DNA from: Planctomycetota bacterium
GTDB lineage: Bacteria; Planctomycetota; UBA1135; UBA2386
Reading direction: 5' to 3'
DNA length: 64,000 nucleotides
NCBI GenBank assembly: GCA_041398565.1
Contig: JAWKUN010000003.1
Location: 848,529-912,528, forward strand
Below the pieces are notes generated by a model. The model was not told where the DNA came from. It ran no database searches and worked only from the letters and a program-made list of their open reading frames with translations. A program made the position numbers and the translations under genes. Shown one piece after another: positions 8,083 to 49,180 of the stretch (positions are counted from its first letter, which is position 1; each line of letters opens with the position of its first letter).

Positions 8083-9339
8083 TCAGTCTCTGCGTCGCTC
8101 GACTTGCGGGGCGCGCGCGAGCGCGCGCTCGAGGTGCGCGGCCAGCTGCCGGCCACGCGCGGCGTCGCCGCGCGCGCAGACCGAGCCGTCGCGGTCGAGC
8201 AGGATCGCGTGCGGCAGCACCTCGATGCCGAAGCGTTGCGCCAGCGGGCCGTCGAGGCCACCGTCGTGCACCAGCTCCCAACCGAAGCCCAGCTGCTTGG
8301 CAGCTTCGCGCACGGTGTCGTCGTCGCTGGCGTCGAGCGCGATGCCGACGATCTCGAAGCCCTGCGTGTGGAAGCGCTGGTAGGTGGCCACGAGGTCGGG
8401 TGCTTCGGCAGACGTGATCGGGCACCAGCTCGCCCAGAAGTGCAGCAGCACGCAGCGACCGTGCAGCGCGCTCAGGTCGATCTCTCGGCCGCTGAGCGCG
8501 CGCGCCCGCCATGCGATCGGGGCCTCGGTCGTCGCGGCTGCTGTCGTCTCGGCGACGGTGGCACCGTACAGCGCGCGCACCGCTCGATCGCGTTCGGGTT
8601 CGCTGAGCGTCCGGTCGTCCAGCAGGCGCCGGACCAACGCCAGGCGCACGCTCGCCACGTCGACGCCGACACCGCAGTGCACGAGCGCCGTCTGCACCCG
8701 GCTGCCCACCGCGGTGGCCGGTTGCTGCAGGTCGAGCGCGCGCATCGCCCAACCCTGCACGCGCACGGGGTCGGGGCTGGCCCGCGCGCCCTCCTCCTCG
8801 ATGGCGTCGAGATACACTCGGCCGACCAGCGTCGCGTGCGCCGGTACCGGCAACTTCGCGTAGCGCGCGAAGTAGGCTTCGAGGTCGCGGACGGCAGTCT
8901 CGTAGTCGCCGTTGAGGAACTGGTACAGCGCGGGGGCATAGCCGACCCCGGCGAGGTCACGGTCGCGGTACTTGTCGAGGAAGCGGCCGAGGCCGGGCGC
9001 GGCGACGTGGGCGTCGGCCGCGCCGGCTGACACGCGCAGGACCTCGGTGAGCTCGCGCACCAGGGGGTCCTGGGCGCGGGGCTCGCGCGGGGCGGGCACC
9101 GGGGCGCCGAGCCGCGGTGGAAGCTCCTTCTTCTGCTGTTCGACCGTTTCCTCGACCTTCTCCGCGACCCTCTCCTTGACCTTCTCCTTGACAGGGGGAG
9201 GGGTCTGCGCGCTGACGTCGATCAGTGTGGCGAGCCCGGCCAAGGCGAATCCCATGAGCCGGGCGCGCGCGGGCGTGGGCGTTCGCCGCGTGAGACTGGG
9301 GGACGCCGAGTCCGATTCCGAGACGGTCAGCGAAGACAT
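8083..9339 (-). CDS. TlpA/redoxin-family thioredoxin-fold protein with an N-terminal helical domain; the active site reads WCPIT (CxxT)
   Basis: The C-terminal part LLHFWASWCPITSAEAPDLV...GFEIVGIALD...VLPHAILLDRDG is a typical TlpA/ResA-like fold. The probable start at 9339 (MSSLTV...RRTPTPARARLMGFALAGLATLIDVSAQ) gives an export signal. Confidence 0.7.
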   Translation of the reverse strand: MSSLTVSESDSASPSLTRRTPTPARARLMGFALAGLATLIDVSAQTPPPVKEKVKERVAEKVEETVEQQKKELPPRLGAPVPAPREPRAQDPLVRELTEVLRVSAGAADAHVAAPGLGRFLDKYRDRDLAGVGYAPALYQFLNGDYETAVRDLEAYFARYAKLPVPAHATLVGRVYLDAIEEEGARASPDPVRVQGWAMRALDLQQPATAVGSRVQTALVHCGVGVDVASVRLALVRRLLDDRTLSEPERDRAVRALYGATVAETTAAATTEAPIAWRARALSGREIDLSALHGRCVLLHFWASWCPITSAEAPDLVATYQRFHTQGFEIVGIALDASDDDTVREAAKQLGFGWELVHDGGLDGPLAQRFGIEVLPHAILLDRDGSVCARGDAARGRQLAAHLERALARAPQVERRRD

Positions 9340-9519
9340 CCAGCGACCGAGGTCGACACAGGGGCTGGGAGTGTATCCCGCCCACGCCGCCGGGTAACTC
9401 CGCCCGGAGCGGGGGTGCCGCAACTTTCGCTCGGTTCCCGGGGCTTGGCGCGCGCCGCGCTGGCGTTATCTTCGCCTCATGTCGGCCCACCGGGCCGGAC
9501 GAAGTCCTTCCAGGAACGC

Positions 9520-9822
9520 ATGAAGATGCCCAGACTCCTCTTGCTGTCGAGCGCAGTCGCCCTGCTCGGGGCGGTCGCCCCCGCCCAGCTCGGACCCGAC
9601 CCGCGTGACCAGATGCGGCAGATCGCCGACAAGGTCGCCGAAGAGATGAAGGAGATCGACCGCCTGCTCACGTCGCGCGACACCAGCGGTGCCGCCGCCG
9701 GCGCGCTCGAGCGCAGTGCCGCAGGCATCGACAAGATGCTCGACGGCGCGCAGACCTCGAACAAGCGCGTCCAGCAGGGGATCGAGGAGCTGATGGCGCA
9801 GCTCAGCAAGTGCGGGCTTTGA
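9520..9822 (+). CDS. small secreted helical protein ending ...KCGL-TGA (possibly the N-terminal part of a longer product)
   Basis: ATG at 9520 gives the signal peptide MKMPRLLLLSSAVALLGAVAPAQ. This is followed by a helical, charged sequence. The stop is TGA at 9820-9822. Confidence 0.55.
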   Translation: MKMPRLLLLSSAVALLGAVAPAQLGPDPRDQMRQIADKVAEEMKEIDRLLTSRDTSGAAAGALERSAAGIDKMLDGAQTSNKRVQQGIEELMAQLSKCGL

Positions 9823-9836
9823 AGCGGTGGTGGTGA

Positions 9837-9854
9837 GGGCTCTGGTCAGAGCCC
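9837..9854 (+). promoter_or_regulatory. perfect 7-bp hairpin with a GGUC tetraloop, starting 14 nt downstream of the in-frame TGA (SECIS-like candidate)
   Basis: GGGCTCT (9837-9843), GGTC (9844-9847), AGAGCCC (9848-9854). A possible lower helix pairs 9824-9829 with 9863-9868. No T-tract follows, so it is not a classical terminator. Confidence 0.45.
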
Positions 9855-9861
9855 GCAAGAC

Positions 9862-10206
9862 ATGCCGCAGGATGGACAGCAGCGCGACGGCCAGCAGCAG
9901 CCAGGACCGCGTCGGGAAAACCAGACGCCGGACATGGTTCAGACGGAACAACAACAACAACAGCAGCAGGCTGGCGGCAAGCCCCAGGGTGGCGGTGAGA
10001 ATCCGCAGACGGCGGAGAACCGAGCCGCCGCCAAGCAGCAGGCCGACGACGGTAAAGAGGTCGCGGAGCGAACGCGCGAGGTGTCCGAGTGGGGCAACCT
10101 GCCGGAGTACCTCGGCGCGATCAAGCACCGTGGTGGCGTGCCGGAAGTCAGCGAGAAGTACCGCAAGCTGTACGACGCCTACCTGCGCGCTCAGGCGAAG
10201 AAGTAG
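9862..10206 (+). CDS. Gln/Gly-rich protein with a conserved-looking C-terminal WGNLPEYL...YRKLYDAYLRAQAKK motif (possibly the continuation of 9520..9822)
   Basis: Coding-like sequence in the same frame as 9520..9822. It has no signal peptide and no Shine-Dalgarno-like sequence of its own. The C-terminal 45 aa are non-repetitive and look conserved. Confidence 0.55.
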   Translation: MPQDGQQRDGQQQPGPRRENQTPDMVQTEQQQQQQQAGGKPQGGGENPQTAENRAAAKQQADDGKEVAERTREVSEWGNLPEYLGAIKHRGGVPEVSEKYRKLYDAYLRAQAKK

Positions 10207-17898: not shown

Positions 17899-20800
17899 TC
17901 AGGCGTCGCCCTTGGCGAGGAAGACGGCAGCCGTCGTCGGCGCCCGGGTCAACCCGAGGACCGCCTGCACGCCACGCGCGTAGGCCGCGAGTTGGGCCAC
18001 GTGTGCCTCGGGGTCGGGGTCACGGTCCGTCTTCCAGTCGAGCACGTGGACATCGCCCGCGGCGTCGGCGAACACCACGTCGACGATGCCGTGCACGACC
18101 TGGCCGTCGCCATCGCGGTAGGTGAGGGCGATCTCGCGCTCGACCCACGCCGCCGAGCGCAGGGCGGCGGCGACGTCGCCGCGATGGAAGCGCGCGAGCC
18201 AGCCGTACAACTCGTCGCGATCGGCTTCGGCGCCGCTCACCGCCGCGAGCAGGTCCGGGTCCACGTCGGTACGTTGCAGGTCGACCACGGCCAGGTAGGC
18301 GTGCGCCGCCTGCCCGCGCCGGCGGGCAGCCTCGCCCGCGACGCCGCCGGTGACCGGCCACCGACCCGGTCGATCGTCCACCGCGCTCGGTCGCAGCGAC
18401 CGCCGGCGCGCCGCCTGCGCCGCGCGCACAGCCAACGCTCGGTGCGCGGCCAACGCTTCGACCGTGCTGCCGAGATCCTCGTCGGGGCCGCTCGTCGTCG
18501 GTATCGCTTCGATCCCGGTCGGTCGCATGGGGCGCACCAACAGGCCGTTGCTGCCCACCGGCACGGAGGTCAGGTCGCGTTGCCACAGCGACTCCTGCGT
18601 GAGCTTCTCGTCGTCGTGGCCGACCAGCAGCAACCGTTCCTTGGCGCGCGTGGCGGCGACGTAGAACAGACGGCGTTCCTCGGCCTCCTGGTGTTTGCCG
18701 GCCTCGACGCGCGCCACCAGCGCCGCACGGTTCTTGCGCTCACCGACCTGCACCGCCACCAGCGCACGCCCGTCGGCAGTGAACGTGCGCTGCGCCGGGG
18801 CGCCGTCGCCGTCGGGGTCCGACGGCGGCCGGCGCGCCAGGTCGGGCACGATCACGACTTCGAACTCGAGGCCCTTGGCCGCATGCACGGTCATGATGCG
18901 CACCGCGTCGGTGTCGCGGTCGAAGAGCGGGCTCTCCTCGTCGTCGGTCTCGCGCAGCGTGCGCCGCTCGACCAGGGCTGCCGCCTCGGCCAGGTCGAGC
19001 GGGGCTGCGCGCAGCAGCTGCTGCAGCAAGCGGTCGAGGTTGGCCAGGCGCTGCGCCCCCTCGAAGCCCGAGCCCTCCACCAGCAGCAGCTCCTCGTGGC
19101 GCAGGATCGCCGGGAGCGCCTCGTGCAGCGGCTGGCCGGCGATGCGGCCGTGCAGGTCGCGCAAGAAGCGCATGCCCTCGGCCACCGCCCCCTCGCCGGC
19201 CGGCTCCTGGCGCCAATCGAAGGTCCCACCGCTCGCGCGGTGACGCAAGAGGTCTCTGTCGCTGGCGCCGCACAGCGCCGAGCGCAGCACCGCCAGGGTC
19301 GGCACCGCGTCGAACGGGCGCGCCATGGCGGCCATCAGGGCACCCGCCAGCACGATCTCGTGCCGTGAGTAGAAGCGGCGACTACCCTGCAGCACGTAGG
19401 GGATGTCGGCCTGCCGCAGCGGCCGCAACAGCCAGGTGGTGTCCGCAGCGGCGCGCAGGAGGATGGCGATGTCGCCCAGCTTCACGCCCTCTGCTTGCAG
19501 CTCGCCGATCAATCGCTGGATGGCACGTCCCTCGCGCTGGCGGCGTTCGTGCGCCTTGCCGGCGAGCGCGTCGGCTTCGAGCAACAAGAGCTCGACGCGG
19601 GCGGGGGTGCTACCGCCGCGCACCGGCACCACCGCTTCGTAGCCGAGCTGATAGGGCACGTCTTCGGTCAGGGTGTGCCGGCACGTCTCGTTGACGAAGT
19701 GGAGGATCTGTGGCCGGCTGCGGAAGTTGGCCGACAGCGCCAGGCGGCGTCCGCTGGCCACGTGCTCCACCGCACGGAAGTAGGCGCCGACGTCGGCACG
19801 CCGGAAGCGGTACACGCTCTGCTTGGCGTCACCGACGATGAACAGGCAGGGCCGCAGCGCCAGCGCGCAGGGGTCGCGGGCGGCACCGCCGGGGTCGCGC
19901 GCCGGGTCGCTCGCCAGCAGGAAGAGGACGTCGTACTGCAGCGGGTCGGTGTCCTGGAACTCGTCGACCAGGATGGTCTGGAAGCGCTGCGCCAGCTTCT
20001 TGCGCACGGCGCCGCGGTCGAGCAGCACGCGCCGCACCAGCAGCAGGAGGTCGTCGAACGACAGCTCGCCGGCGCGCGCGCGCGCCTGGCGCTGCGCGTG
20101 CAAGAACGGCAACAGGAAGGCGTGCGCCAGCGCGATCGACTCTTCGTCGGCGTCGAGCAGGCCCAGCACGTATTTGCGGTGGGCGTCGAGACCTTCGGTG
20201 GCGGCGGCGTCGCGCTGCTCGCCGAGCTCGCGCTTGCCCGCCTTCGGCGTGTTCTTGGCGAGCACGTCGGGCCGGCCCGCAGCGGCCTCGCCGCGGCGCA
20301 GGGCCGCGTACGCGGACAGCACCGCGTCGGCGCAGTCGCGCCACGCCGGCCGTGCGCCGGCGTGCGCGTCGACCAGGGCGCGCAGGTCGGCCTCGCGTGC
20401 CGGCAGGTCGTGCGGCTGGAACGGCCGCCGGAGCTCGTCCCAGGCCTCCTCGGGCATGTTCAGCAGCGCGAAGGCCAGCTCGCGCAGCTCGGCCGCGTCG
20501 AAGCGTTCGAGCGCCTCGGCGTGTTCGCCTTCGGTGGCGGGGCCGAGGAACTCGAAGAAGTCGCGGTCGAAGCGCGCGCGCACGCTCTCGTCGCTGCCGA
20601 CCTGCACGACCGCCGGCAGGTCGAGCGCAGCGGCGTGCTCCTGCAGCAGGCGCAGGCAGAAGCCGTGGAACGTCGACAGCACCAGCCGATCGACGTCGCC
20701 GAGCACGTCGCCGGCTCGCCGCACGTGCTCGGGTCCGATGCCGAGCGCCGCCAGGACGAACGCGTCGGCGGCGTCGACGGACTCGCCGGCGACGAAGGCC

Positions 20801-21060
20801 GGGACGGCGGACAGCATGCGCACGAGCCGCTCGCGCATCTCGGCGGCGGCGTTCTCGGTGAAGGTGACGGCCAGGACGCAGTCGGGGTCGATGTGCTGGG
20901 TGAGCAGCGCCGCCAGCAGGCGTCCGACCAGGAGCGACGTCTTGCCGGTGCCGGCGCCGGCGGTGACGACCAGGTTGTGGCCGAAGTCGGTGAGCGCGGC
21001 CCGGCGCGCGGCATGGTCGGGCAGGTCCACGGTCCGCCGCGCGTCAGGAACCATCGTCAC
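17899..21060 (-). CDS. addA: UvrD/Rep-type helicase-nuclease, AddA-like (C-terminal PD-(D/E)xK nuclease)
   Basis: Walker A is AGAGTGKTS, followed by FTENAAAEMRER and ILVDEFQDTD. The C-terminal part GIVDVVFADAAGDVHVLDWKTD is the nuclease motif. Confidence 0.85.
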   Translation of the reverse strand: MTMVPDARRTVDLPDHAARRAALTDFGHNLVVTAGAGTGKTSLLVGRLLAALLTQHIDPDCVLAVTFTENAAAEMRERLVRMLSAVPAFVAGESVDAADAFVLAALGIGPEHVRRAGDVLGDVDRLVLSTFHGFCLRLLQEHAAALDLPAVVQVGSDESVRARFDRDFFEFLGPATEGEHAEALERFDAAELRELAFALLNMPEEAWDELRRPFQPHDLPAREADLRALVDAHAGARPAWRDCADAVLSAYAALRRGEAAAGRPDVLAKNTPKAGKRELGEQRDAAATEGLDAHRKYVLGLLDADEESIALAHAFLLPFLHAQRQARARAGELSFDDLLLLVRRVLLDRGAVRKKLAQRFQTILVDEFQDTDPLQYDVLFLLASDPARDPGGAARDPCALALRPCLFIVGDAKQSVYRFRRADVGAYFRAVEHVASGRRLALSANFRSRPQILHFVNETCRHTLTEDVPYQLGYEAVVPVRGGSTPARVELLLLEADALAGKAHERRQREGRAIQRLIGELQAEGVKLGDIAILLRAAADTTWLLRPLRQADIPYVLQGSRRFYSRHEIVLAGALMAAMARPFDAVPTLAVLRSALCGASDRDLLRHRASGGTFDWRQEPAGEGAVAEGMRFLRDLHGRIAGQPLHEALPAILRHEELLLVEGSGFEGAQRLANLDRLLQQLLRAAPLDLAEAAALVERRTLRETDDEESPLFDRDTDAVRIMTVHAAKGLEFEVVIVPDLARRPPSDPDGDGAPAQRTFTADGRALVAVQVGERKNRAALVARVEAGKHQEAEERRLFYVAATRAKERLLLVGHDDEKLTQESLWQRDLTSVPVGSNGLLVRPMRPTGIEAIPTTSGPDEDLGSTVEALAAHRALAVRAAQAARRRSLRPSAVDDRPGRWPVTGGVAGEAARRRGQAAHAYLAVVDLQRTDVDPDLLAAVSGAEADRDELYGWLARFHRGDVAAALRSAAWVEREIALTYRDGDGQVVHGIVDVVFADAAGDVHVLDWKTDRDPDPEAHVAQLAAYARGVQAVLGLTRAPTTAAVFLAKGDA

Positions 21061-23929
21061 CTCCGAGAACCGGCTGGTAGGTCGACTTGCTGCGCAGGCG
21101 CAGGTAGCGCTGCACGGTCGGTCGGTCGGCGTTGTAGACGCGTTCGCGGCTGGGTGGATGCAGCCGCCGGCAGGCGGCGCGGAACTCGCAGAAGCGGCAC
21201 ACGCGCGCGGCGTCCATGCCCGGCACGAAGGTCCCGGACGCGCGCACGTCGGCCAGGACCTGCAGCGTCTCGCGCAACGCGTCGGTGAACTTGCCGCCGA
21301 GGAAGTCCTGGGCGTAGCGCCACCTCAGCCAGAACTCGTCGTCACCGGCGAGCCCGGGGTGCACGGCGCGCACGCCCAGGTCGTGCACGTGCCCGCCGAG
21401 CGTTTGCGTTGCCATCGCGGCGTACGCCGGCATCTGCAGGTGGCGTCCCTTGAGGATCTCGGTGGTGGAGAGGACCTGGCGCGGGCGGGCGCCGGTCTTG
21501 TAGTCGATGATGCGCAGGCTGCCGTCGGCCAGGCGGTCGACGCGGTCGGCACGCCCGCGTACCGACAGGCTGCGACCGTCGCCCAGGTCGAGCTCTCCCT
21601 CGAGCGGATGCTCTTGATGCAGCGGGGTGAGTCCGTGCGTCCGCAGCGCGCGCACGTCGTCGGCGAAGGTGCGCGCCACGGCGTCCGTCCACTGGCGCAC
21701 CAGGATGCGGTGCAGGCCGGGCAGGGTGTGGGCCAGCGGCGACGCGTCCGCCAGCATCGCGTCCAGGCGCGGCAACAGCTCGTGTGCCAGGGCCGCCTCG
21801 TCGACGACTTCGTCCGTCTGCGCGGCGCGTCCCAGCCGCGCGTGCAGCTGGGCCAGGAGATCGTGCACGTTGGCGCCGACCGCGGACGGCGCCAGCGCCA
21901 GCGCATCGGGTTCCGGCGGCAGCGGCTGCACGCGCAGCACGCGCTGGAACAGATACTGATGCGCGCACTTGGCGAGCTGCTCCAGGCTGCTCACCGACAC
22001 GGCGCCGGCGCGCTCGCGATCGTCGTCGCTGCCGATGTCGCCGTCGAAGGCGAGGTCGCCCGCGAAGCGTTCGAGCGTGGCGACACGCTTGGTCGCCGCG
22101 GCGCCGCGCGCGCCGAGCAGCTTGCTCGCCGCCGCCGCCGAGCTGCCGATCAGGGCCACGTGGACCACGGCGGCATCGAGCGGAGCGAGCCCGCTCTGCA
22201 CGCGGGCCAGGGCGCGCGCCTGCGGGTGCGCGCGTTCCACCGTCTCGTCGCAGCCGGCGAGCACCGGGGCCAGGGTCGATTCGAGCAGCGGCGAAGGACC
22301 GACTGGCCGGCCCTGCGTGTCGGTCTGCGACCGGCTGACGTGCAGCGCGCTGGTCGGTAGCGCGGCGAGCTGGACGAGGCGGCGCGTCTCGTCGGCACGC
22401 ACCGTCGCGCGCGGCGACAGGCCCAGCGCCACGCGGTCGTGGTCGGACAGGAAGGTCGGCGGCGGCGTCGGCAGCGGCACTTGGTCGTCGGCCGCGCCGA
22501 GCAAGGTGAGGTGCCGCGCCGGGAAGGCCAGCGCGTCGCCGTACTCGACGACGTGGACGGCCTCGCCGCCGGACGGGCCGACCGGCAAGCCGCGTCCCTG
22601 CAGCAGGTCGAGCGCATCGCCGACGAAGTCGTCGGCGGCGGCGTAGCGTAGCTCGGTCGAGAGTTCGGCGAGCGTGGCGGCGGCCTCGGCGTCGCGGCTG
22701 CCCGTCGCAGGCTCGTTCAGCTCGCCATCGAGCAAGTGGATCAGGGCGTCGACCTTCTCCTCGCCGGTGCGGGCGTCTTGTGCTGTTCGCACGCGGCCAG
22801 CGAGCCGTCGCACGCGCTCCGCTGCTGCGGGGGCCCGGTCGCTCAGGGCCGCGACGACGCGCTCGGGCAGGGCGCCTGCGCCGGACAGGCCGAGCGTCCG
22901 CGCCCGCACCTCGAGCGCGTGCTGCTCGGCGGGGGGCAGCGGCTCCTTCGCCAGCTCGCTGCCGGCCAGCGCCAGGTAGGCGCGGGCCGGGGCGCCGTCG
23001 AACAGGAGGCGCACGGCGTGTGCTGCCAGCGCGCCGCGCGGTTCGCGCGTGATCGGCGTTTCGGCGTGCGCCCGCAAGGGCATGCCCTCGGCGGCGAAGG
23101 CGACGGTCAGCGAGGGGACGTACGGTCCGAGCCGCGGTGCAGCCACCACCATGTCGCGCAGCGTGACCCCGGACGCGAACGCCAGCGCGCAACGGTGCGC
23201 AGCGGCGCGCAGCTCGGCATCGAGCGTCGGGTGCGCCGAGCGGCTGCGGGCGGCGACGGGCACCTCTGCCGCGGGCGCGGTCACGATCTGGACGTCGCTG
23301 CACGCGGCCAGGTGATCCAGCACGCCCAGCACGTCGCGCGCGTCGTGGTCGCCGACCTTGGCCACGAAGAGCGGTTGCCGCGGACGCCGGCCGGCCGCCA
23401 GCAGCGAACGCAGGCGCGCGATGCGCTTGCCGCGGCTCTCGCGCGCGTGCGCGGCCAGGGCGGCAGCGAAGGCCCGGGCGATCGCGAGCGTCTCGCGCCC
23501 CCAGTTCGAGAGAGAGGGCGCGGCCGCACCCGGCTCCGGCGCTCCCCCGCGCATCCACTCGCGGCACGTGGCGAGCAGCGCGCCCAGGCTGGCGCGGTGG
23601 CGCAGGGCGTAGGGCGCCGCTTCGCCGCGCTGGCCGCGCAGCACTTCGCACAGGATCGCGCGTTCGGCCAGGGGGGGCAGCACGTCGTCGCCGGCGGGTT
23701 CGCCGAGCAACCAGGACAGCTCGCGCGCCAACGCCACCGGGGTGAGGAAGCGCACGCCGAGCATGCCGCCGCGTTCTGCAACCACCGAGTCGCGCAGCGC
23801 GGTCGCCGCCTCCGCCGACGAGGCGAGGACGAAGGCGCGGCCGTGCCGCCCCGAACCCTCCGGCAGATGGGCGCACAGCCACCGCACGTGAGGGTGCATC
23901 GCCGTGGCAACCGCCTTGGCCCGTCGCAT
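21044..23929 (-). CDS. addB: AddB-like PD-(D/E)xK nuclease subunit with a C-terminal Cys cluster
   Basis: GRADRVDRLADGSLRIIDYKTG is the nuclease motif, and the C-terminal CRFCEFRAAC is an Fe-S-type cysteine cluster. No Walker A is seen. The ORF extends to 24073, but that would overlap the divergent gene, so the start at 23929 or 23899 is preferred. It overlaps addA by 17 nt. Confidence 0.75.
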   Translation of the reverse strand: MRRAKAVATAMHPHVRWLCAHLPEGSGRHGRAFVLASSAEAATALRDSVVAERGGMLGVRFLTPVALARELSWLLGEPAGDDVLPPLAERAILCEVLRGQRGEAAPYALRHRASLGALLATCREWMRGGAPEPGAAAPSLSNWGRETLAIARAFAAALAAHARESRGKRIARLRSLLAAGRRPRQPLFVAKVGDHDARDVLGVLDHLAACSDVQIVTAPAAEVPVAARSRSAHPTLDAELRAAAHRCALAFASGVTLRDMVVAAPRLGPYVPSLTVAFAAEGMPLRAHAETPITREPRGALAAHAVRLLFDGAPARAYLALAGSELAKEPLPPAEQHALEVRARTLGLSGAGALPERVVAALSDRAPAAAERVRRLAGRVRTAQDARTGEEKVDALIHLLDGELNEPATGSRDAEAAATLAELSTELRYAAADDFVGDALDLLQGRGLPVGPSGGEAVHVVEYGDALAFPARHLTLLGAADDQVPLPTPPPTFLSDHDRVALGLSPRATVRADETRRLVQLAALPTSALHVSRSQTDTQGRPVGPSPLLESTLAPVLAGCDETVERAHPQARALARVQSGLAPLDAAVVHVALIGSSAAAASKLLGARGAAATKRVATLERFAGDLAFDGDIGSDDDRERAGAVSVSSLEQLAKCAHQYLFQRVLRVQPLPPEPDALALAPSAVGANVHDLLAQLHARLGRAAQTDEVVDEAALAHELLPRLDAMLADASPLAHTLPGLHRILVRQWTDAVARTFADDVRALRTHGLTPLHQEHPLEGELDLGDGRSLSVRGRADRVDRLADGSLRIIDYKTGARPRQVLSTTEILKGRHLQMPAYAAMATQTLGGHVHDLGVRAVHPGLAGDDEFWLRWRYAQDFLGGKFTDALRETLQVLADVRASGTFVPGMDAARVCRFCEFRAACRRLHPPSRERVYNADRPTVQRYLRLRSKSTYQPVLGGDDGS

Positions 23930-24024
23930 GCGCACAGTATGCGCGCCGGCACGCGGGTCCCGATCGACAAAGCTGGCGCGCACGCCGTGGCCGGCCGCGG
24001 GGGCGCCGGTAGCATGGATTCGCG

Positions 24025-25497
24025 ATGCGAGGACCGGTGCCGCCCACTCGAGCCAGCGCAGCACCGCTTCCATCGAGCGCTCGGAACCGTGGCACGCGCA
24101 CCGTGGCGGTGTGCTCGCTCGTCGCGCTGGCCTTGGTGTTGCGGGTCACGGGCCTCGGCGCGCATTCGCTCTGGTTCGACGAGTGCATGACCTGGCTCAT
24201 CGCGCGCGCACCGCGGCCGCTCGAACTCGTGCAGCAGGAGCTGAACCCACCGTTCGCGTACCTGGTGTTCTGGTCGTGGATCCGGATCGCCGGCGACTCG
24301 GTGTCGGCCCTGCGCCTGTTGCCGGCGCTGGCGTCGTTCGCGGCAGTCCTCTTGGGGGCGCGTGCCGCCCACGAACTCGCGGGACCGCGCGCCGGTCTCG
24401 TGGCGCTGCTGCTGCTCGGCACGAGCCCGCTGAGCGTGTGGTACGGACAGGAGGTGCGTTCCTACTGCTTCGTCGAGGTCGGGTCGGCGCTGCTCCTGCT
24501 GGCCTGGGCGCGGCGGCATGGAGGACGCCGGTCGTGGCCGTGGGCGGCAGCGGGCACCTTCGTGGCGGTCGGATCGCACTACTTGGCTGTCCTCGTGCCG
24601 GCCCTGGTGCTCGGCGTGGCGTGGGGCCAGACCTGGTGGCGTCACCAGGGAGGAGGCATGCGCGTGCGGCTGGTGCGGGCGGCCGGCGATCCGTTCGTGC
24701 GCGGGGTCGCTCTCGGGCTGTTGTGCTGGCTGCCATGGTGGATCCTCGTCACGCGCGTGCAGCTGCGCACGCCTTGGGGACGAGGGTCGGTGCCCGACGC
24801 ACGCGCCCTCGTCGAGCTGCCGTCACGCCTCTACTTCGTCGCCGGTTCCGCGCTCGCGCCGGCCGTCCGCGGTCTCGTCGGAGTGGGGGTCGTGGTCTGG
24901 AACCTCGGTCTCGCCGCCGCGGCGTGGCGCGCCGTGCGTCGGCCCGGCGTGCTGCGCGTGCTGATGCTGATCCCGGCCGGCGCGGTCCTCGCCAGCGTCG
25001 CGGTGTCGTGGTGTTGCGTGCCGGTCTTCGGCGTGCGCTACCTGCTGGCGGCCCATCTCTGGCTGGTGACGGCAGTCGCGGCGGCGGTGCGGGCGCGGGT
25101 CGCCGAGACGGCGACCGTGGTTCTCGTCGCGGCCGTCGGCGTGGCCAACGTGCTCGCGACGCGTGCGGCCGACGTCAAGGAGGACTTCGCTGGCGCCGCC
25201 TCGGCCTTGACCGCGCGCTTCCAACCGGGTGACCGCATCGTGTGTCTGACCGGCGTGCTCGAAGCGTTCGAGCAAGCGCCGCTGCGCTACTACCTGCGTC
25301 ACGCACCCGAGTTGCTCGCAGCCCTGACTCCGGCGTTGGACGTCCTTGCCTCACCGACCCCCGGCACCGTGCACATCGTGTTGCGCGAGGCCCCCTATTC
25401 GTGGCCGCTCTGGCAGCGCCTGCTCGAGTGCGGCACCGTCGTGAGCGAAACACCGATGCACAACCGCGTGAAGTACGCGCAGCTCCGCCTGCCGTGA
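24025..25497 (+). CDS. ArnT/PMT-like (GT39/GT83-type) membrane glycosyltransferase
   Basis: The N-terminus SLWFDECMTWLIA...LNPPFAYLVFWSW, multiple TM segments and a soluble C-terminal domain together give the typical dolichyl/undecaprenyl-phosphate-sugar transferase architecture. Confidence 0.65.
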   Translation: MRGPVPPTRASAAPLPSSARNRGTRTVAVCSLVALALVLRVTGLGAHSLWFDECMTWLIARAPRPLELVQQELNPPFAYLVFWSWIRIAGDSVSALRLLPALASFAAVLLGARAAHELAGPRAGLVALLLLGTSPLSVWYGQEVRSYCFVEVGSALLLLAWARRHGGRRSWPWAAAGTFVAVGSHYLAVLVPALVLGVAWGQTWWRHQGGGMRVRLVRAAGDPFVRGVALGLLCWLPWWILVTRVQLRTPWGRGSVPDARALVELPSRLYFVAGSALAPAVRGLVGVGVVVWNLGLAAAAWRAVRRPGVLRVLMLIPAGAVLASVAVSWCCVPVFGVRYLLAAHLWLVTAVAAAVRARVAETATVVLVAAVGVANVLATRAADVKEDFAGAASALTARFQPGDRIVCLTGVLEAFEQAPLRYYLRHAPELLAALTPALDVLASPTPGTVHIVLREAPYSWPLWQRLLECGTVVSETPMHNRVKYAQLRLP

Positions 25498-43867: not shown

Positions 43868-43956
43868 CGTTCGACGTCAGAGCTGTTGGCGCGGATTGAT
43901 CTTCATAATTTCTTCGGCCTCATCTTCACGCACCACCCGGGCCGAAGGTGGTGGTG

Positions 43957-45018
43957 ATGCAAAGCGGGAAGCCGAGAAGTTGGTTCGTGAAGATGCTGCC
44001 GACGCTGGGCGCTCTGGCACTGGCCGGATGCGCGAGCACCGGGGCGTGGGATGGGCAGACCGCGATGGTCGGCAATTGGACGCGCCTCGCCGATCGCGGT
44101 GACGCGACCGCGCAGTTCATGCTCGGCCTGGCCTATGACATCGGCGACGGTGTCCCCCAAGACGCATCCGCCGCGGCCGGGTGGTACGGGCGGGCGGCCG
44201 CGCAAGGTCACCCGGCTGCACAGAACAACCTCGGCTTGCTCTACCGCGAGGGGCGGGGTGTGCCGCTCGAGCCCCAGCGCGCCGCGCACTGGATCGCGCA
44301 GGCGGCGGCGGCTGGATTCGTGCGCGCCCAGGTGAACCTGGCGCTGATGACCCTGCGCGGCGAGGGCGTCGCCCGCGATCCGGTCGGCGCGCGCGAGATG
44401 CTGCTGCCGGCCGCGGGCGCCGGCGATCCCAAGGCACGGCGCGCGCTCGCCCTCGTCGAAGACGTGATGGGGGCGTCGGGCGACACCCCGTTGGCTTTCG
44501 AGCTCTTCGAGCGCAAGGCACAGCAGGGCTCGCCACAGGCGCAGCTCGAGGTCGGTCTGCGCTGTCTGCAGGCGCGCGGCGTCGACCGCGACCTCGCGCG
44601 AGGGCTGGCCTGGGTGCGGCGCGCCGCAGAAGCCGGGTTCCCGGCCGCGGAATTCACGCTCGGCTGGATGCACCACCACGGCGTCGCCACGCCGCGCGAC
44701 ACGACGCGCGCGGCGATGTGGCTGCGCCGCGCCGCGGAGCACGGAATGGAGCAAGCCCAGGCGCAGCTCGGCGTGATGTACGCCCGCGGCGAGGGCCTGC
44801 CGCAGGACGATGTCGAGGCCGCCCGCTGGCTGCGGGCGGCTGCCGAGGCGGGCGTGGCTCAGGCTCGCTACAACCTGGGCCTCGTGCTGGCGCGCGGACA
44901 GGGCGTACCGCGGAACCTCGAGGACTCCGAGCGCTGGCTGCGTCTGGCCGCAGAGCAGGGCCTGCCCGCCGCGCGCGCGCGCCTGGCGATGCTGGCGCAC
45001 GCGACGCCGCGCCGCTGA
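43957..45018 (+). CDS. Sel1-repeat (TPR-like) lipoprotein
   Basis: The lipobox is LALAGC. There are at least 7 Sel1 repeats of the form A.AQ..LG..Y..G.GV..D...A..W...AA. GAAGG lies upstream of the ATG at 43957. Confidence 0.8.
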   Translation: MQSGKPRSWFVKMLPTLGALALAGCASTGAWDGQTAMVGNWTRLADRGDATAQFMLGLAYDIGDGVPQDASAAAGWYGRAAAQGHPAAQNNLGLLYREGRGVPLEPQRAAHWIAQAAAAGFVRAQVNLALMTLRGEGVARDPVGAREMLLPAAGAGDPKARRALALVEDVMGASGDTPLAFELFERKAQQGSPQAQLEVGLRCLQARGVDRDLARGLAWVRRAAEAGFPAAEFTLGWMHHHGVATPRDTTRAAMWLRRAAEHGMEQAQAQLGVMYARGEGLPQDDVEAARWLRAAAEAGVAQARYNLGLVLARGQGVPRNLEDSERWLRLAAEQGLPAARARLAMLAHATPRR

Positions 45019-46502: not shown

Positions 46503-49115
46503 CTAACGCAGCGCGCGCGCCGCGCGCACACCGAGGTTGCCCGAGCGTGTTGCCGGATCGTCTTGACGTCGCAGCGCCGCGCGCGCGTGCATCGGCGCGT
46601 GGTCGAATGCACCGCCACGCAGCACCTTCTGGCCGTCGCCGTCGTCGCGGAGGCCGTCGCCTTCGCCGCAGGGATGTCGATAGCTCGCGTAGGTGTCGCG
46701 GCACCACTCCCACACGTTGCCGGCGGTTCCGTACAGACCGAACGCGTTGGGCTCCAGTGCGTCGACCTCGGCGTGCCAGACGTAGCCATCGGAGAAGTGC
46801 TCGCGCGCGGTCGCGGCCAGCGTCTCGAGCGCCACCAGCTCGAACCACTCGGCCCCGGCGGCGAGGGCCGTCTCGTCGGCGACGTTGGCGCCCGCCACCA
46901 GCGCGGCCACGTCCGTGCCCGTCCACCACGGCGTGTGGGTGCCGCCGCGCGCCCCGTACTCCCATTGGGCCTCGGTGGGCATGGTCAACCCGGCCTGGGT
47001 GAGCACGCGCGAGCAGGCGTTCCACGAGACCATCTCCACCGGGTGTGCCAGGCTGAGTCTCACCTTGAAGTTGGAGCCAGGCCGTGCCTCGGCCGGGTTG
47101 CCACCGCCGGTGAGGCGCATCCACTGCCCCTGGGTGAGCTCGTGCTCGGCGAGGAAGAACGGCGCCAGCGTCACGTCATGTGGCGGGCTCTCGCTGATGC
47201 GCGCCATGGGGTCGTAGTTCGGGGCATCCTCGGACTTGCTCTGCGCGCCCATGACGAACGTGCCTCCGGGCAGCAACGCGAACACGATGCAGGTGTCGTC
47301 GTCGACGAAGAAGTGGCCGGTGGGGCCGCGCTCGGGCATCGACCCGGAGCGCGGGTGACCGAACTCCCACAGTCCGTTGGCCGGGTTGGGCCCGAGCGGG
47401 ACCAGGCCTTCCTGCACGGCGAGCTGCATGCCGCCGTAGAGGGGGCTCGCGGCGATGGCGGCGACGGCATCGCGCCACGCGTCGGCGGCGGCGGCCGTCG
47501 CCGCCCGCTCGCGCTCGAGCTGATCCAGGTTGCGGCGGACACGGGTGATGGCGCCTCCGGGTTGCGTCAGCGCGTCGGCTTGCCCCACGACGCTGCGCAG
47601 GGTCTCGAACAGGAAGCGACGCGCCGGGTCGGCCGGCGGGGTGGGGCCCTCGGGCCCGGCGGTCCCCAAGCGCGCCAGCGCCGGGCGCACGGCTTCGACC
47701 TCGGCGCGCAGGTCGTCGGCGCGCTGCAGCCAGACCCGCAGGGCCGGGCCGTACTCGGGCCACGCGCGGTAGATCGGCGCCTCGGCGGCTTGCAGTTCGT
47801 CCAGCCGCCGCACGAAGGACACCAGCTCGAAGTCCTTGCGCGTCTCCTCACCATTCACGTACAGGAGCGAGATCACCACCAGCGCCGCGGCCACGAGCGC
47901 CATGACCGCCACCACGTACGGGTTGCGTTGCACCCAGCGGCGGGTGCGCAGTAGGCGTCCGGCGCGCCGGGCCAGCACCGGCTCGCGCGCACGCACCCGT
48001 CGCAGGTCGTCGGCCAGGTCGGCCGCCGTGCGGTAGCGCCGGTCGAGGTCCTTCTCCAGCGCCTTCTCCAGCACGACGTCGAGGTCGGGTGGCAGGGCGC
48101 GGTTGCTGCGGCTCGCCGGCGGTGCGGTCTGCTTGGCGATGGCGTCGAGCAGCTCGCGCATCGACTGGCCGCCGAACGGGCGCACGCCGGTGGCCGCTTC
48201 GTACATGGTGACTCCGAGCGCGTACACGTCGGCCCGGTGGTCGACGCCGCGCGCGTTCGGCGTCACTTGCTCGGGCGCCATGTAGAGCGGTGTGCCGGCC
48301 AGCTCCCCGGTCATCGTCAAGCCGAGGTCGTCGTCGGCTGCGAGCGCCATCCCGAAGTCGAGCACGATCGGGTTGCCGTCGGGCTCGATCAGGATGTTGG
48401 CCGGCTTGACGTCGCGGTGGACGACTCCCTGCGCGTGGGCGAAGTGCAACGCCCTCGCCACCGTCTCGATCGTTTCCAGCAGCGCGTCCACCGCTGCGCG
48501 CGAAGTGGTCGCCGACGCCGGCGGCTCGCGTGCGATGCGGGCGGCCAGGGTCTCGCCGTCGAGGAAGCGCATCGCCATGAACGGCATGCCGCCTTCTTCG
48601 CCGACCTCGTACACCGGACAGATGTTGGGGTGCTCGAGGCGCGCGGCCAGCTTGGCCTCGCGCCAGAAGCGCTCGAGGGCCGCCGGCGAGCCGAGGCGCT
48701 CGGGACGGATCAGCTTGAGCGCGGCCTTGCGGCGCAGGCGCACGTCCTCGGCCAGGAACACCACGCCCATGCCGCCCTGGCCCAGCAACCGCTCGACCCG
48801 GTAGCCGCCGATGGCCTGACCGTCGCCGGGCAAGCCGCGCCACGCCGTGCCAGGGCTCGGCCCGTCGGCGCGCGTCGCGGCCGCATGCTCCTCGGTCGCC
48901 AGCAGGTCGCGCAGGATGTCGGCGACGTCCGGATGGGCCGCCACGAAGTCCTCCGGCGGCGGCGCCGCGCCCTGCTGCCGGGCGGCTCGGTAGCGCTCGA
49001 CCAGCGCCAAGGCGCGGGCGTAGGCCTCGAAGGACGACATCGAGGCGATCTTAGGCGCGCCGGCGCCGGCCAGCGCGTCGGAGACGAGCTGCGCGGACGC
49101 CGATCCGGTCGGCAC
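46503..49115 (-). CDS. Ser/Thr protein kinase - single TM - extracytoplasmic FGE/sulfatase-modifying-factor-like domain
   Basis: The kinase motifs are GQGGMGVVFLA, ALK, HRDVKPANIL, DFG and APE. The TM segment is VVAVMALVAAALVVISLLYV. The C-terminal part VSWNA...WEYGARGG...GNVWEWCRD...RGGAF is an FGE-like domain. The start could be 49040 instead of 49115. Confidence 0.85.
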   Translation of the reverse strand: MPTGSASAQLVSDALAGAGAPKIASMSSFEAYARALALVERYRAARQQGAAPPPEDFVAAHPDVADILRDLLATEEHAAATRADGPSPGTAWRGLPGDGQAIGGYRVERLLGQGGMGVVFLAEDVRLRRKAALKLIRPERLGSPAALERFWREAKLAARLEHPNICPVYEVGEEGGMPFMAMRFLDGETLAARIAREPPASATTSRAAVDALLETIETVARALHFAHAQGVVHRDVKPANILIEPDGNPIVLDFGMALAADDDLGLTMTGELAGTPLYMAPEQVTPNARGVDHRADVYALGVTMYEAATGVRPFGGQSMRELLDAIAKQTAPPASRSNRALPPDLDVVLEKALEKDLDRRYRTAADLADDLRRVRAREPVLARRAGRLLRTRRWVQRNPYVVAVMALVAAALVVISLLYVNGEETRKDFELVSFVRRLDELQAAEAPIYRAWPEYGPALRVWLQRADDLRAEVEAVRPALARLGTAGPEGPTPPADPARRFLFETLRSVVGQADALTQPGGAITRVRRNLDQLERERAATAAAADAWRDAVAAIAASPLYGGMQLAVQEGLVPLGPNPANGLWEFGHPRSGSMPERGPTGHFFVDDDTCIVFALLPGGTFVMGAQSKSEDAPNYDPMARISESPPHDVTLAPFFLAEHELTQGQWMRLTGGGNPAEARPGSNFKVRLSLAHPVEMVSWNACSRVLTQAGLTMPTEAQWEYGARGGTHTPWWTGTDVAALVAGANVADETALAAGAEWFELVALETLAATAREHFSDGYVWHAEVDALEPNAFGLYGTAGNVWEWCRDTYASYRHPCGEGDGLRDDGDGQKVLRGGAFDHAPMHARAALRRQDDPATRSGNLGVRAARALR

Positions 49116-49180
49116 CTTCTCCCTTGCGCCGAGGCGTCGTCGGCCCGATCATCCGGCGCCCAGCACCGCCACCACCCGCC

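Follow-up and report, generated by a model that had tools for sequence, protein, structure and literature searches.

In Escherichia coli, the fdhF gene carries an in-frame UGA (codon 140 in strain K-12) followed, within the coding sequence, by a stem-loop, the selenocysteine insertion sequence (SECIS). Its GGUC apical loop occupies nucleotides 22-25, counting the U of UGA as 1; we read these positions directly on the K-12 gene. Selenoprotein families reported more recently by Haft and colleagues, such as the MerB-like CU proteins and the ResA-like WAxxUGC proteins, are said to be typically truncated in databases at their selenocysteine (Sec) codon. Here we describe a gene that resembles both cases, located in a 64,000-nucleotide stretch of DNA from a Planctomycetota bacterium (assembly GCA_041398565.1, contig JAWKUN010000003.1, positions 848,529 to 912,528; hereafter the window, with coordinates counted from its first nucleotide). 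The gene extends from 9520 to 10206 on the forward strand, has an in-frame TGA at 9820-9822 and, like fdhF, continues into an intragenic stem-loop with a GGUC apical tetraloop. We consider it very likely that this UGA is decoded as selenocysteine within a single gene for a secreted protein. The decoding mechanism appears to be the known bacterial one, whereas neither the protein family nor its SECIS seems to have been described before: no account of such a Planctomycetota selenoprotein family with a SECIS was found in the literature searched, and the family falls outside all models of Pfam, NCBIfam and Rfam.

With the TGA read through, the fused gene comprises 228 codons and a stop. Its start is either ATG 9520 or ATG 9526, the latter being the choice of NCBI and Prodigal. 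The NCBI annotation, made with the Prokaryotic Genome Annotation Pipeline (PGAP), shows two hypothetical proteins at this place, R3F56_11400 (98 residues) and R3F56_11405 (90 residues). The upstream open reading frame (ORF), 9520-9822, terminates with ...LSKCGL-TGA; a second ORF, 9862-10206, shares its frame, and the 39 nt separating them read SGGGEGSGQSPQD. The product is predicted to begin with a secretion signal peptide (9520-9585), MKMPRLLLLSSAVALLGAVAPA followed by QL, which displays basic residues, a hydrophobic core and an A-x-A motif. A22 and Q23, on either side of the end of this peptide, are almost invariant in our alignment A1 of the family, and the sequence suggests that cleavage takes place here and that the window protein is secreted. 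It is followed by an N-terminal helical hairpin domain (residues 28-97, 9601-9810) with an invariant EIDRLL motif. The proposed Sec, residue 101, comes directly after the second helix of this domain, where the linker begins, in the context C-G-L-U. The linker (9823-10074) is a low-complexity region rich in Gly, Gln, Pro and Ser and is predicted to be disordered, with a predicted local distance difference test score (pLDDT) below 50 over residues 102-181; it contains a conserved R-x-E-N-Q-T-P-D motif, and R131 is invariant in alignment A1. The protein ends with a conserved domain, WGxLPxYL...RGGxPxVxxKYRKxxxAYL (10090-10203), in which W191, G192, L194, Y197, R204 and G205 are invariant. An AlphaFold model places helices at residues 28-53 and 60-97, disorder at 102-185 and two short helices at the C-terminus. 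Its confidence (mean pLDDT 56) was too low for a fold search.

The TGA is not an assembly error, a possibility raised in the sequence-only reading of the window that preceded this analysis. Five independent Logan assemblies, each from a different sequencing run and located through contigs encoding the 114-residue downstream ORF, reproduce the TGA region with 0-1 mismatches. The window has a G+C content of 71%, and TGA is its main stop codon, ending 29 of the 43 ORFs called by third-position GC content. TGA being the main ordinary stop in this DNA, there is no codon reassignment, and a global reassignment of TGA to Gly or Trp was rejected on the same count.

An in-frame TGA at the boundary of helix 2, with the frame open beyond it, occurs in all nine lineages whose DNA was examined (the window, L001, L017, L018/L019, L020, L021, L022, L023 and L024/L025). 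One of them, L001 (JANPER010000221.1), was found by a scan of the GTDB species representatives; it shares 78% amino-acid identity with the window protein and reads ...SKSGL-TGA-SGSGEGSGQ.... A profile search yielded in addition many short proteins that match the N-terminal half only and end just past helix 2. We inspected the DNA of seven of these, and all seven end in TGA with the frame continuing. Their contexts are CGL-U-SGSGEGSGQ in L017, CGGGT-U-SSGKLGQ in L021 and GNGT-U-SGGG-U-SE in L022 (all from ENA), GSGT-U-PFGDGPGQ in L018/L019 (JGI and Logan), and NGC-U-PFGGQGSGQ in L020, NGGT-U-PFGSDAGPG in L023 and LGGS-U-SSGCSECSGQ in L024/L025 (all from Logan). Some TGA-bearing lineages are only about 35% identical in amino acids to the window. 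In six of the nine (the window, L001, L018, L020, L023 and L024), reading continues through the conserved C-terminal domain until a normal stop is reached, the domain taking the form WGxLP...YRKF..AFLK in L018, L020, L023 and L024; the contigs of three TGA lineages are too short to reveal it. A query with the N-terminal half retrieved 31 clusters at 90% identity, with lengths of 93-113 residues (one 67-residue fragment) and the same end point, making 33 clusters with two found earlier. Among them, 24 are further candidates beyond the lineages checked in DNA. The endings of the 31 are ..CGL, ..SGL, ..GSGT, ..NGC, ..GG[STGN] and ..QCGGG[TN]. As in the families of Haft and colleagues, the database entry is thus a short ORF ending at the UGA, and some lineages (L020, P0297, P0316) have a C-U dipeptide; unlike those families, the window protein matches no NCBIfam model.

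Two side observations concern these short entries. In the L022 contig (L022:605-622; P0268, ENA ERZ5385979), two TGAs lie in frame at an interval of five codons, GNGT-TGA-SGGG-TGA-SEPS..., upstream of a single hairpin, GGCCCU-GGUC-AGGGCC, whose loop is 42 nt away for the first TGA and 27 nt away for the second. The double TGA may be an error, because the contig has 1.3x coverage and an apparently frameshifted 3' end; if real, it may be a two-Sec variant served by one SECIS. The label 'methyl-accepting chemotaxis protein', which IMG gives to the short ORFs P0263, P0308 and P0309, seems to have been carried over wrongly from a coiled-coil match.

Homologues of the complete protein were recovered with the fused 228-residue query, which matched 29 proteins. 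Nearly all are single ORFs of 226-260 residues from Planctomycetota metagenomes, with about 99% query coverage. An exhaustive profile search extended the family to 521 representatives at 50% identity. Of two metagenome scans, the first detected no relatives and the second, based on a DNA pattern for NKRVQQGI, detected one family member only, a Cys form. At the column of the TGA, the closest homologues read CGLC (P0001 and P0004), CGMC (P0002) and SGLG (P0003), and the Cys codon is TGC in P0002 and P0004, for both of which the DNA was examined. The homologues are therefore not split at this point, the outcome that the sequence-only reading had named as fatal to it, and the closest of them place Cys opposite the TGA. 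The pairing of Sec and Cys recurs in a distant subfamily, where U-PFG (L018, L020, L023) stands against C-PFG (L026): protein P0213 of L026 reads SSS-C-PFG, encoded by TGC CCG TTC GGG, and the U-PFG codons are TGA CCS TTC GGN. Among full-length representatives, about 17 of 108 have Cys at the TGA position, mostly as the sole Cys past the signal peptide. The CxxU motif emphasized in the earlier reading is present in the window (CGL-U) but is not a motif of the family, other members having SGL-U, GSGT-U, NGC-U or GGS-U. A third-position-GC scan for further TGA-interrupted genes in the window, L001 and L004 (a Gly form of the family) gave only antisense artefacts.

The segment after the TGA is under strong purifying selection. 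Between the window and L001, the ratio of nonsynonymous to synonymous divergence (dN/dS) is 0.19 before the TGA (dS 0.72) and 0.145 after it (dS 1.17), falling to 0.06 over the last 60 codons. The ratios of deep pairs (L018, L020, L023, L024) were not used, since codon bias and linker misalignment make them unreliable.

The apical SECIS-like hairpin of the window, GGGCUCU-GGUC-AGAGCCC (9837-9854), has a 7-bp stem and a GGUC tetraloop at 9844-9847, that is at nt 25-28, 21 nt past the UGA, and a free energy of -11.3 kcal/mol. In the minimum-free-energy fold (-24.9 kcal/mol), it is enclosed by a lower helix, giving an extended structure that covers 9824-9868. The helix proposed in the sequence-only reading exists but is shorter than claimed, with 5 bp and one G-U pair (9824-9828 with 9864-9868) instead of 6 bp and two G-U pairs. 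L001 repeats this extended architecture, with the U-G replaced by U-A. No T-run follows the hairpin in the window, and an intrinsic terminator was rejected for lack of this U-tract. The other particulars of the earlier reading, namely the coordinates of the two ORFs, of the TGA, of the intervening 39 nt and of the hairpin, the shared frame, the dismissal of a terminator and the stated loop position in fdhF, proved right when the sequences were read again.

We compared these features with a published bacterial SECIS model (PMC13188914), which calls for 3-9 nt in the loop, 4-16 bp in the stem, a G in the first two loop positions, a spacing from the UGA of 16-37 nt and a free energy of -7.5 kcal/mol or lower. 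This model is permissive in the present DNA: its geometry is found after 77% of the TGAs in the window, and geometry plus energy limit after 18%. The GGUC loop is more discriminating, only 5 of 953 TGAs in the window being followed, at SECIS spacing, by a stem of 5 bp or more capped with a GGUC tetraloop; GGUC hairpins with a stem of at least 6 bp number only three on both its strands. Since the hairpin of the single sequence is not statistically significant, the case rests on comparative evidence.

A hairpin follows the TGA in all nine lineages, its loop beginning 18-27 nt past the UGA, and the published geometry is found in every one of them. Six of the loops are GGUC and the others GGUCA, CGGGC and GGG; the stems have 6-8 bp, and the consensus of the apical hairpin is GGCYCU-GGUC-AGRGCC. 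The bare 6-bp hairpin of L001 and L017, at -7.1 kcal/mol, falls short of the energy limit, which these two lineages reach only once the lower helix is counted (-17.8 to -20 kcal/mol). A covariance model (R1) trained on five lineages, with the window excluded, gives a single match in the 64 kb of the window, at 9832-9859 (37.9 bits, E = 2e-8; runner-up 13.4 bits). It also recovers the hairpin of L024, which was outside the training set (16.5 bits). In a structure-aware alignment of seven hairpins, fitted to the model and hence favouring the structure, 93.9% of the cells are paired, whereas sliding the partners leaves no more than 59%. Double-sided changes from G-C to U-A occur in two pairs, and another pair spans U-A, U-G and C-G. 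The covariation score of this alignment is 0.293 against 0.149 for shuffled sequences, and 3 of 500 shuffles match it. TGA-bearing loci thus keep the hairpin through compensatory base changes, as the selenoprotein interpretation offered in the earlier reading predicted; that interpretation is now supported by Cys homologues, a real TGA and a conserved hairpin. A further match to the SECIS model, weak (17.1 bits, E = 0.02), was seen at L023:1133-1161, within the 3' end of the gene that precedes the family member; it lies about 60 nt before the start of the family gene, adjoins no in-frame TGA that we examined and may be due to chance.

The R1 hairpin was found neither in the Cys forms L003 and L026 nor in the Gly form L004. 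The Cys form L002/L012 (CGLC) has a decayed version (22.4 bits; L002:2354-2381 and L012:9430-9457). The decay consists of just two synonymous changes, at the TCT (now TCG) and the GGT (now GGG), which break the closing pair and remove the loop U, so that this hairpin looks like a fossil SECIS remaining after the replacement of Sec by Cys. Codon usage around the TGA bears the mark of the same structure. T-ending codons make up 6 of 12 there, compared to a background of 5.3% in the window (p = 1.5e-5), and 5 of 12 in L001, and the rare codons TCT and GGT provide the stem U and the loop U, respectively. The codon before the TGA ends in T at ten TGAs out of ten (CTT, ACT, TGT, TCT or GGT; the rare CTT in the window), whereas CTC, ATG or AGC precedes this column in the Cys and Gly forms. 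The base following the TGA is always A or C across the ten TGAs. These regularities suggest a conserved U-UGA-[A/C] context requirement that is not common to E. coli fdhF (GUC UGA CAC).

The resemblance to fdhF has limits. GGUC lies at nt 22-25 in both fdhF and L018 but at nt 25-28 in the window, the spacing within the family varies from 18 to 27 nt, and two lineages have GGG or CGGGC loops. The stem sequence of the family is unrelated to that of fdhF, and its stems, which are perfect over 6-7 bp, offer no counterpart of the unpaired U in the fdhF stem. In the mechanism that we propose, the SECIS would lie inside the coding sequence just past the UGA, as an apical hairpin with its loop 18-27 nt away, usually placed atop a lower helix. 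If E. coli fdhF is a guide, the hairpin would bind SelB carrying Sec-tRNA(Sec), and SelB would then deliver the Sec-tRNA(Sec) to the UGA in the ribosomal A site.

As regards the protein, the C-G-L-U of the window and its closest relatives facing C-G-L-C in sister lineages, together with a thiol:disulfide oxidoreductase gene next door, recalls the thioredoxin-fold selenoproteins with CxxU/CxxC motifs. In contrast to thioredoxin-like, DsbA-like, Prx/AhpC-like and SelW-like proteins, the product is predicted to have a disordered linker between a helical hairpin and a small helical C-terminus. It also differs from CxxU redox families in that CxxU is not conserved among its Sec forms and most homologues have no Cys. 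Membership in the thioredoxin fold was rejected, in agreement with the earlier reading: no thioredoxin-type model of Pfam or NCBIfam matches, and the low-confidence AlphaFold model is all-helical. CpxP/Spy/ZraP-type proteins (PF13801, Metal_resist) share a secreted all-helical N-terminal domain and a similar size; the PF13801 match is weak (E = 0.049, 14 bits), far under the curated cut-off of 29 bits, and serves as a lead only.

The gene of the window subfamily sits between a divergent gene for a ResA/TlpA-like thiol:disulfide oxidoreductase and a convergent gene for a RecD2 helicase, an arrangement also present in L003, L004 and L005. The ResA/TlpA-like protein (8083-9423, reverse strand; motif WASWCPIT) matches AhpC-TSA, Redoxin and Thioredoxin_8 in Pfam and ResA in NCBIfam, and is extended N-terminally by about 290 residues. 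Second among its NCBIfam matches is the selenoprotein family NF041054 (ResA-like WAxxUGC), with 47 bits against a cut-off of 300, and the protein itself has Cys. The setting is another one in distant subfamilies, where a large upstream gene of unassigned function overlaps the family gene with its end and a DUF4175 protein is encoded nearby. According to a published survey, Sec decoding is present but patchy in Planctomycetes, with full gene sets in Gemmata, Isosphaera and two Porphyra-associated strains (PMC4807772). Insertion of Sec in the present organism would call for selA, selB, selC and selD, which we expect its genome to contain. A query with the E. coli SelA protein gave only enterobacterial proteins among the matches listed.

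The synteny of the window extends well past the TGA gene. Two large neighbouring ORFs at 17899-24145 (reverse strand), one with UvrD helicase and PD-(D/E)XK domains and the other with a PD-(D/E)XK domain, resemble an AddA/AddB-type helicase-nuclease pair, and such a pair is also found downstream in L004. Elsewhere in the window, a single ORF at 46503-49148 (reverse strand) encodes a Ser/Thr protein kinase domain fused to a C-terminal FGE-sulfatase (formylglycine-generating-enzyme-like) domain. A protein with five Sel1 repeats is encoded at 43909-45018 (forward strand); its name is unrelated to selenium, and it is not part of the Sec machinery.

Other explanations of the interrupted frame have to be weighed. 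In the output of PGAP and other gene callers, the region figures as two genes or a truncated one; on this view, the N-terminal ORF would stop at the TGA and the C-terminal part would be independently initiated, at ATG 9862 in the window, or not made at all. This ATG is not conserved: it is GAA in L001, where no in-frame start occurs until the conserved PDM codon 117 nt downstream, the interval nevertheless staying in frame and similar. In other lineages, gene callers start the downstream ORF 88-390 nt past the TGA and leave conserved in-frame sequence uncovered. The idea put forward in the sequence-only reading, that the lower helix sequesters ATG 9862, thereby becomes immaterial; its observation that no Shine-Dalgarno-like sequence lies upstream of this ATG was confirmed and speaks against independent initiation, as does the fact that an independent C-terminal product would have no signal peptide, in contrast to the full-length homologues. 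Moreover, the entire segment remains in frame without extra stops at a synonymous divergence near 1. Because the frame after the TGA is open, similar and under purifying selection, a pseudogene and two genes are both poorly supported, and we regard the two-gene explanation as very unlikely. A functionless nonsense change from TGC to TGA would need one substitution only; the presence of the TGA in five independent assemblies and nine lineages and the strong purifying selection downstream led us to reject both a pseudogene and an assembly error, the chance of either being negligible.

A leaky UGA is harder to distinguish from Sec decoding. A near-cognate tRNA (Trp or Cys) could read the codon, possibly with stimulation by the hairpin and with no Sec involved, giving a short secreted helical protein of 100 residues and a full-length isoform. 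The conserved UGA, downstream frame and hairpin would look alike under such leakiness, which also agrees with the majority of homologues doing without Cys and Sec at this site and with a Sec machinery that is only presumed in the source genome. Leakiness does not predict that the stop is always TGA and aligned with Cys in two separate subfamilies, nor does it predict a GGUC loop as in the SelB-binding element of E. coli at SECIS spacing. To our knowledge, conserved programmed readthrough of cellular genes is barely documented in bacteria, which counts further against this explanation, and we hold it to be unlikely.

Several observations weigh against selenocysteine itself. The 66-nt fold of the window is not beyond chance (z = -1.3 compared to shuffles). 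Among its 954 TGA trinucleotides, 4.5% precede an equally stable 48-nt fold and 4.2% a Watson-Crick stem of 7 bp or more, with a loop G at 16-37 nt spacing. Rfam gave no family at gathering score in the window, nor, for 9700-10000, any SECIS family even with E values up to 10. The covariation comes from seven sequences in a model-fitted alignment; it is weaker when the hairpins are aligned without the structure, 26 of 500 shuffles then attaining the score, in an alignment that misplaces the 5-nt loop of L024. The Cys form L003 has an equally stable hairpin (-25.6 kcal/mol), but a different and unrelated one. No selA, selB or selD and no tRNA gene turned up in the 64-kb window and about 184 kb of related loci in Pfam scans of about 40 window ORFs, tRNA scans and tblastn with E. 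coli SelA and SelB, a result that is uninformative for a multi-megabase genome. Finally, about 88 of the 108 full-length representatives have no Cys at all past the signal peptide, an absence of both Cys and Sec that is atypical of catalytic selenocysteine, and the residues flanking U vary among subfamilies.

These last features bear on the role of the residue in the selenoprotein proposed here. Sec or Cys is probably optional in the family and not a core catalytic residue. The selenol would probably be redox-active or reactive towards metals or thiols, and exposed at the junction of domain and linker in a periplasmic protein. The Sec is placed at the edge of the linker, and about 80% of the homologues have neither Sec nor Cys. 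We put forward only tentatively, as a proposal that may well prove wrong, that the family represents an unusual class of selenoproteins in which an optional Sec outside any folded redox domain reflects a non-catalytic use of selenium; the usual active-site role would then not fit. Such a use could possibly be a reversible selenylsulfide tether to a partner, for instance the TlpA-like neighbour, or the capture of metals or chalcogens in the periplasm.

If confirmed, the gene would add a selenoprotein family in a phylum whose selenoproteome is barely charted, and would correct a systematic misannotation of at least 33 sequence clusters, in which the gene figures as a pair of hypothetical proteins or as a fragment. 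Its SECIS is directly testable in existing SelB reporter systems because the apical loop is the same as in E. coli fdhF, and this compact, well-defined element could be used for finding more selenoproteins in Planctomycetota. A dispensable Sec at the edge of a disordered linker would depart from the picture of Sec as a substitute for catalytic Cys, and the family may therefore be useful for asking why selenium is used at all.

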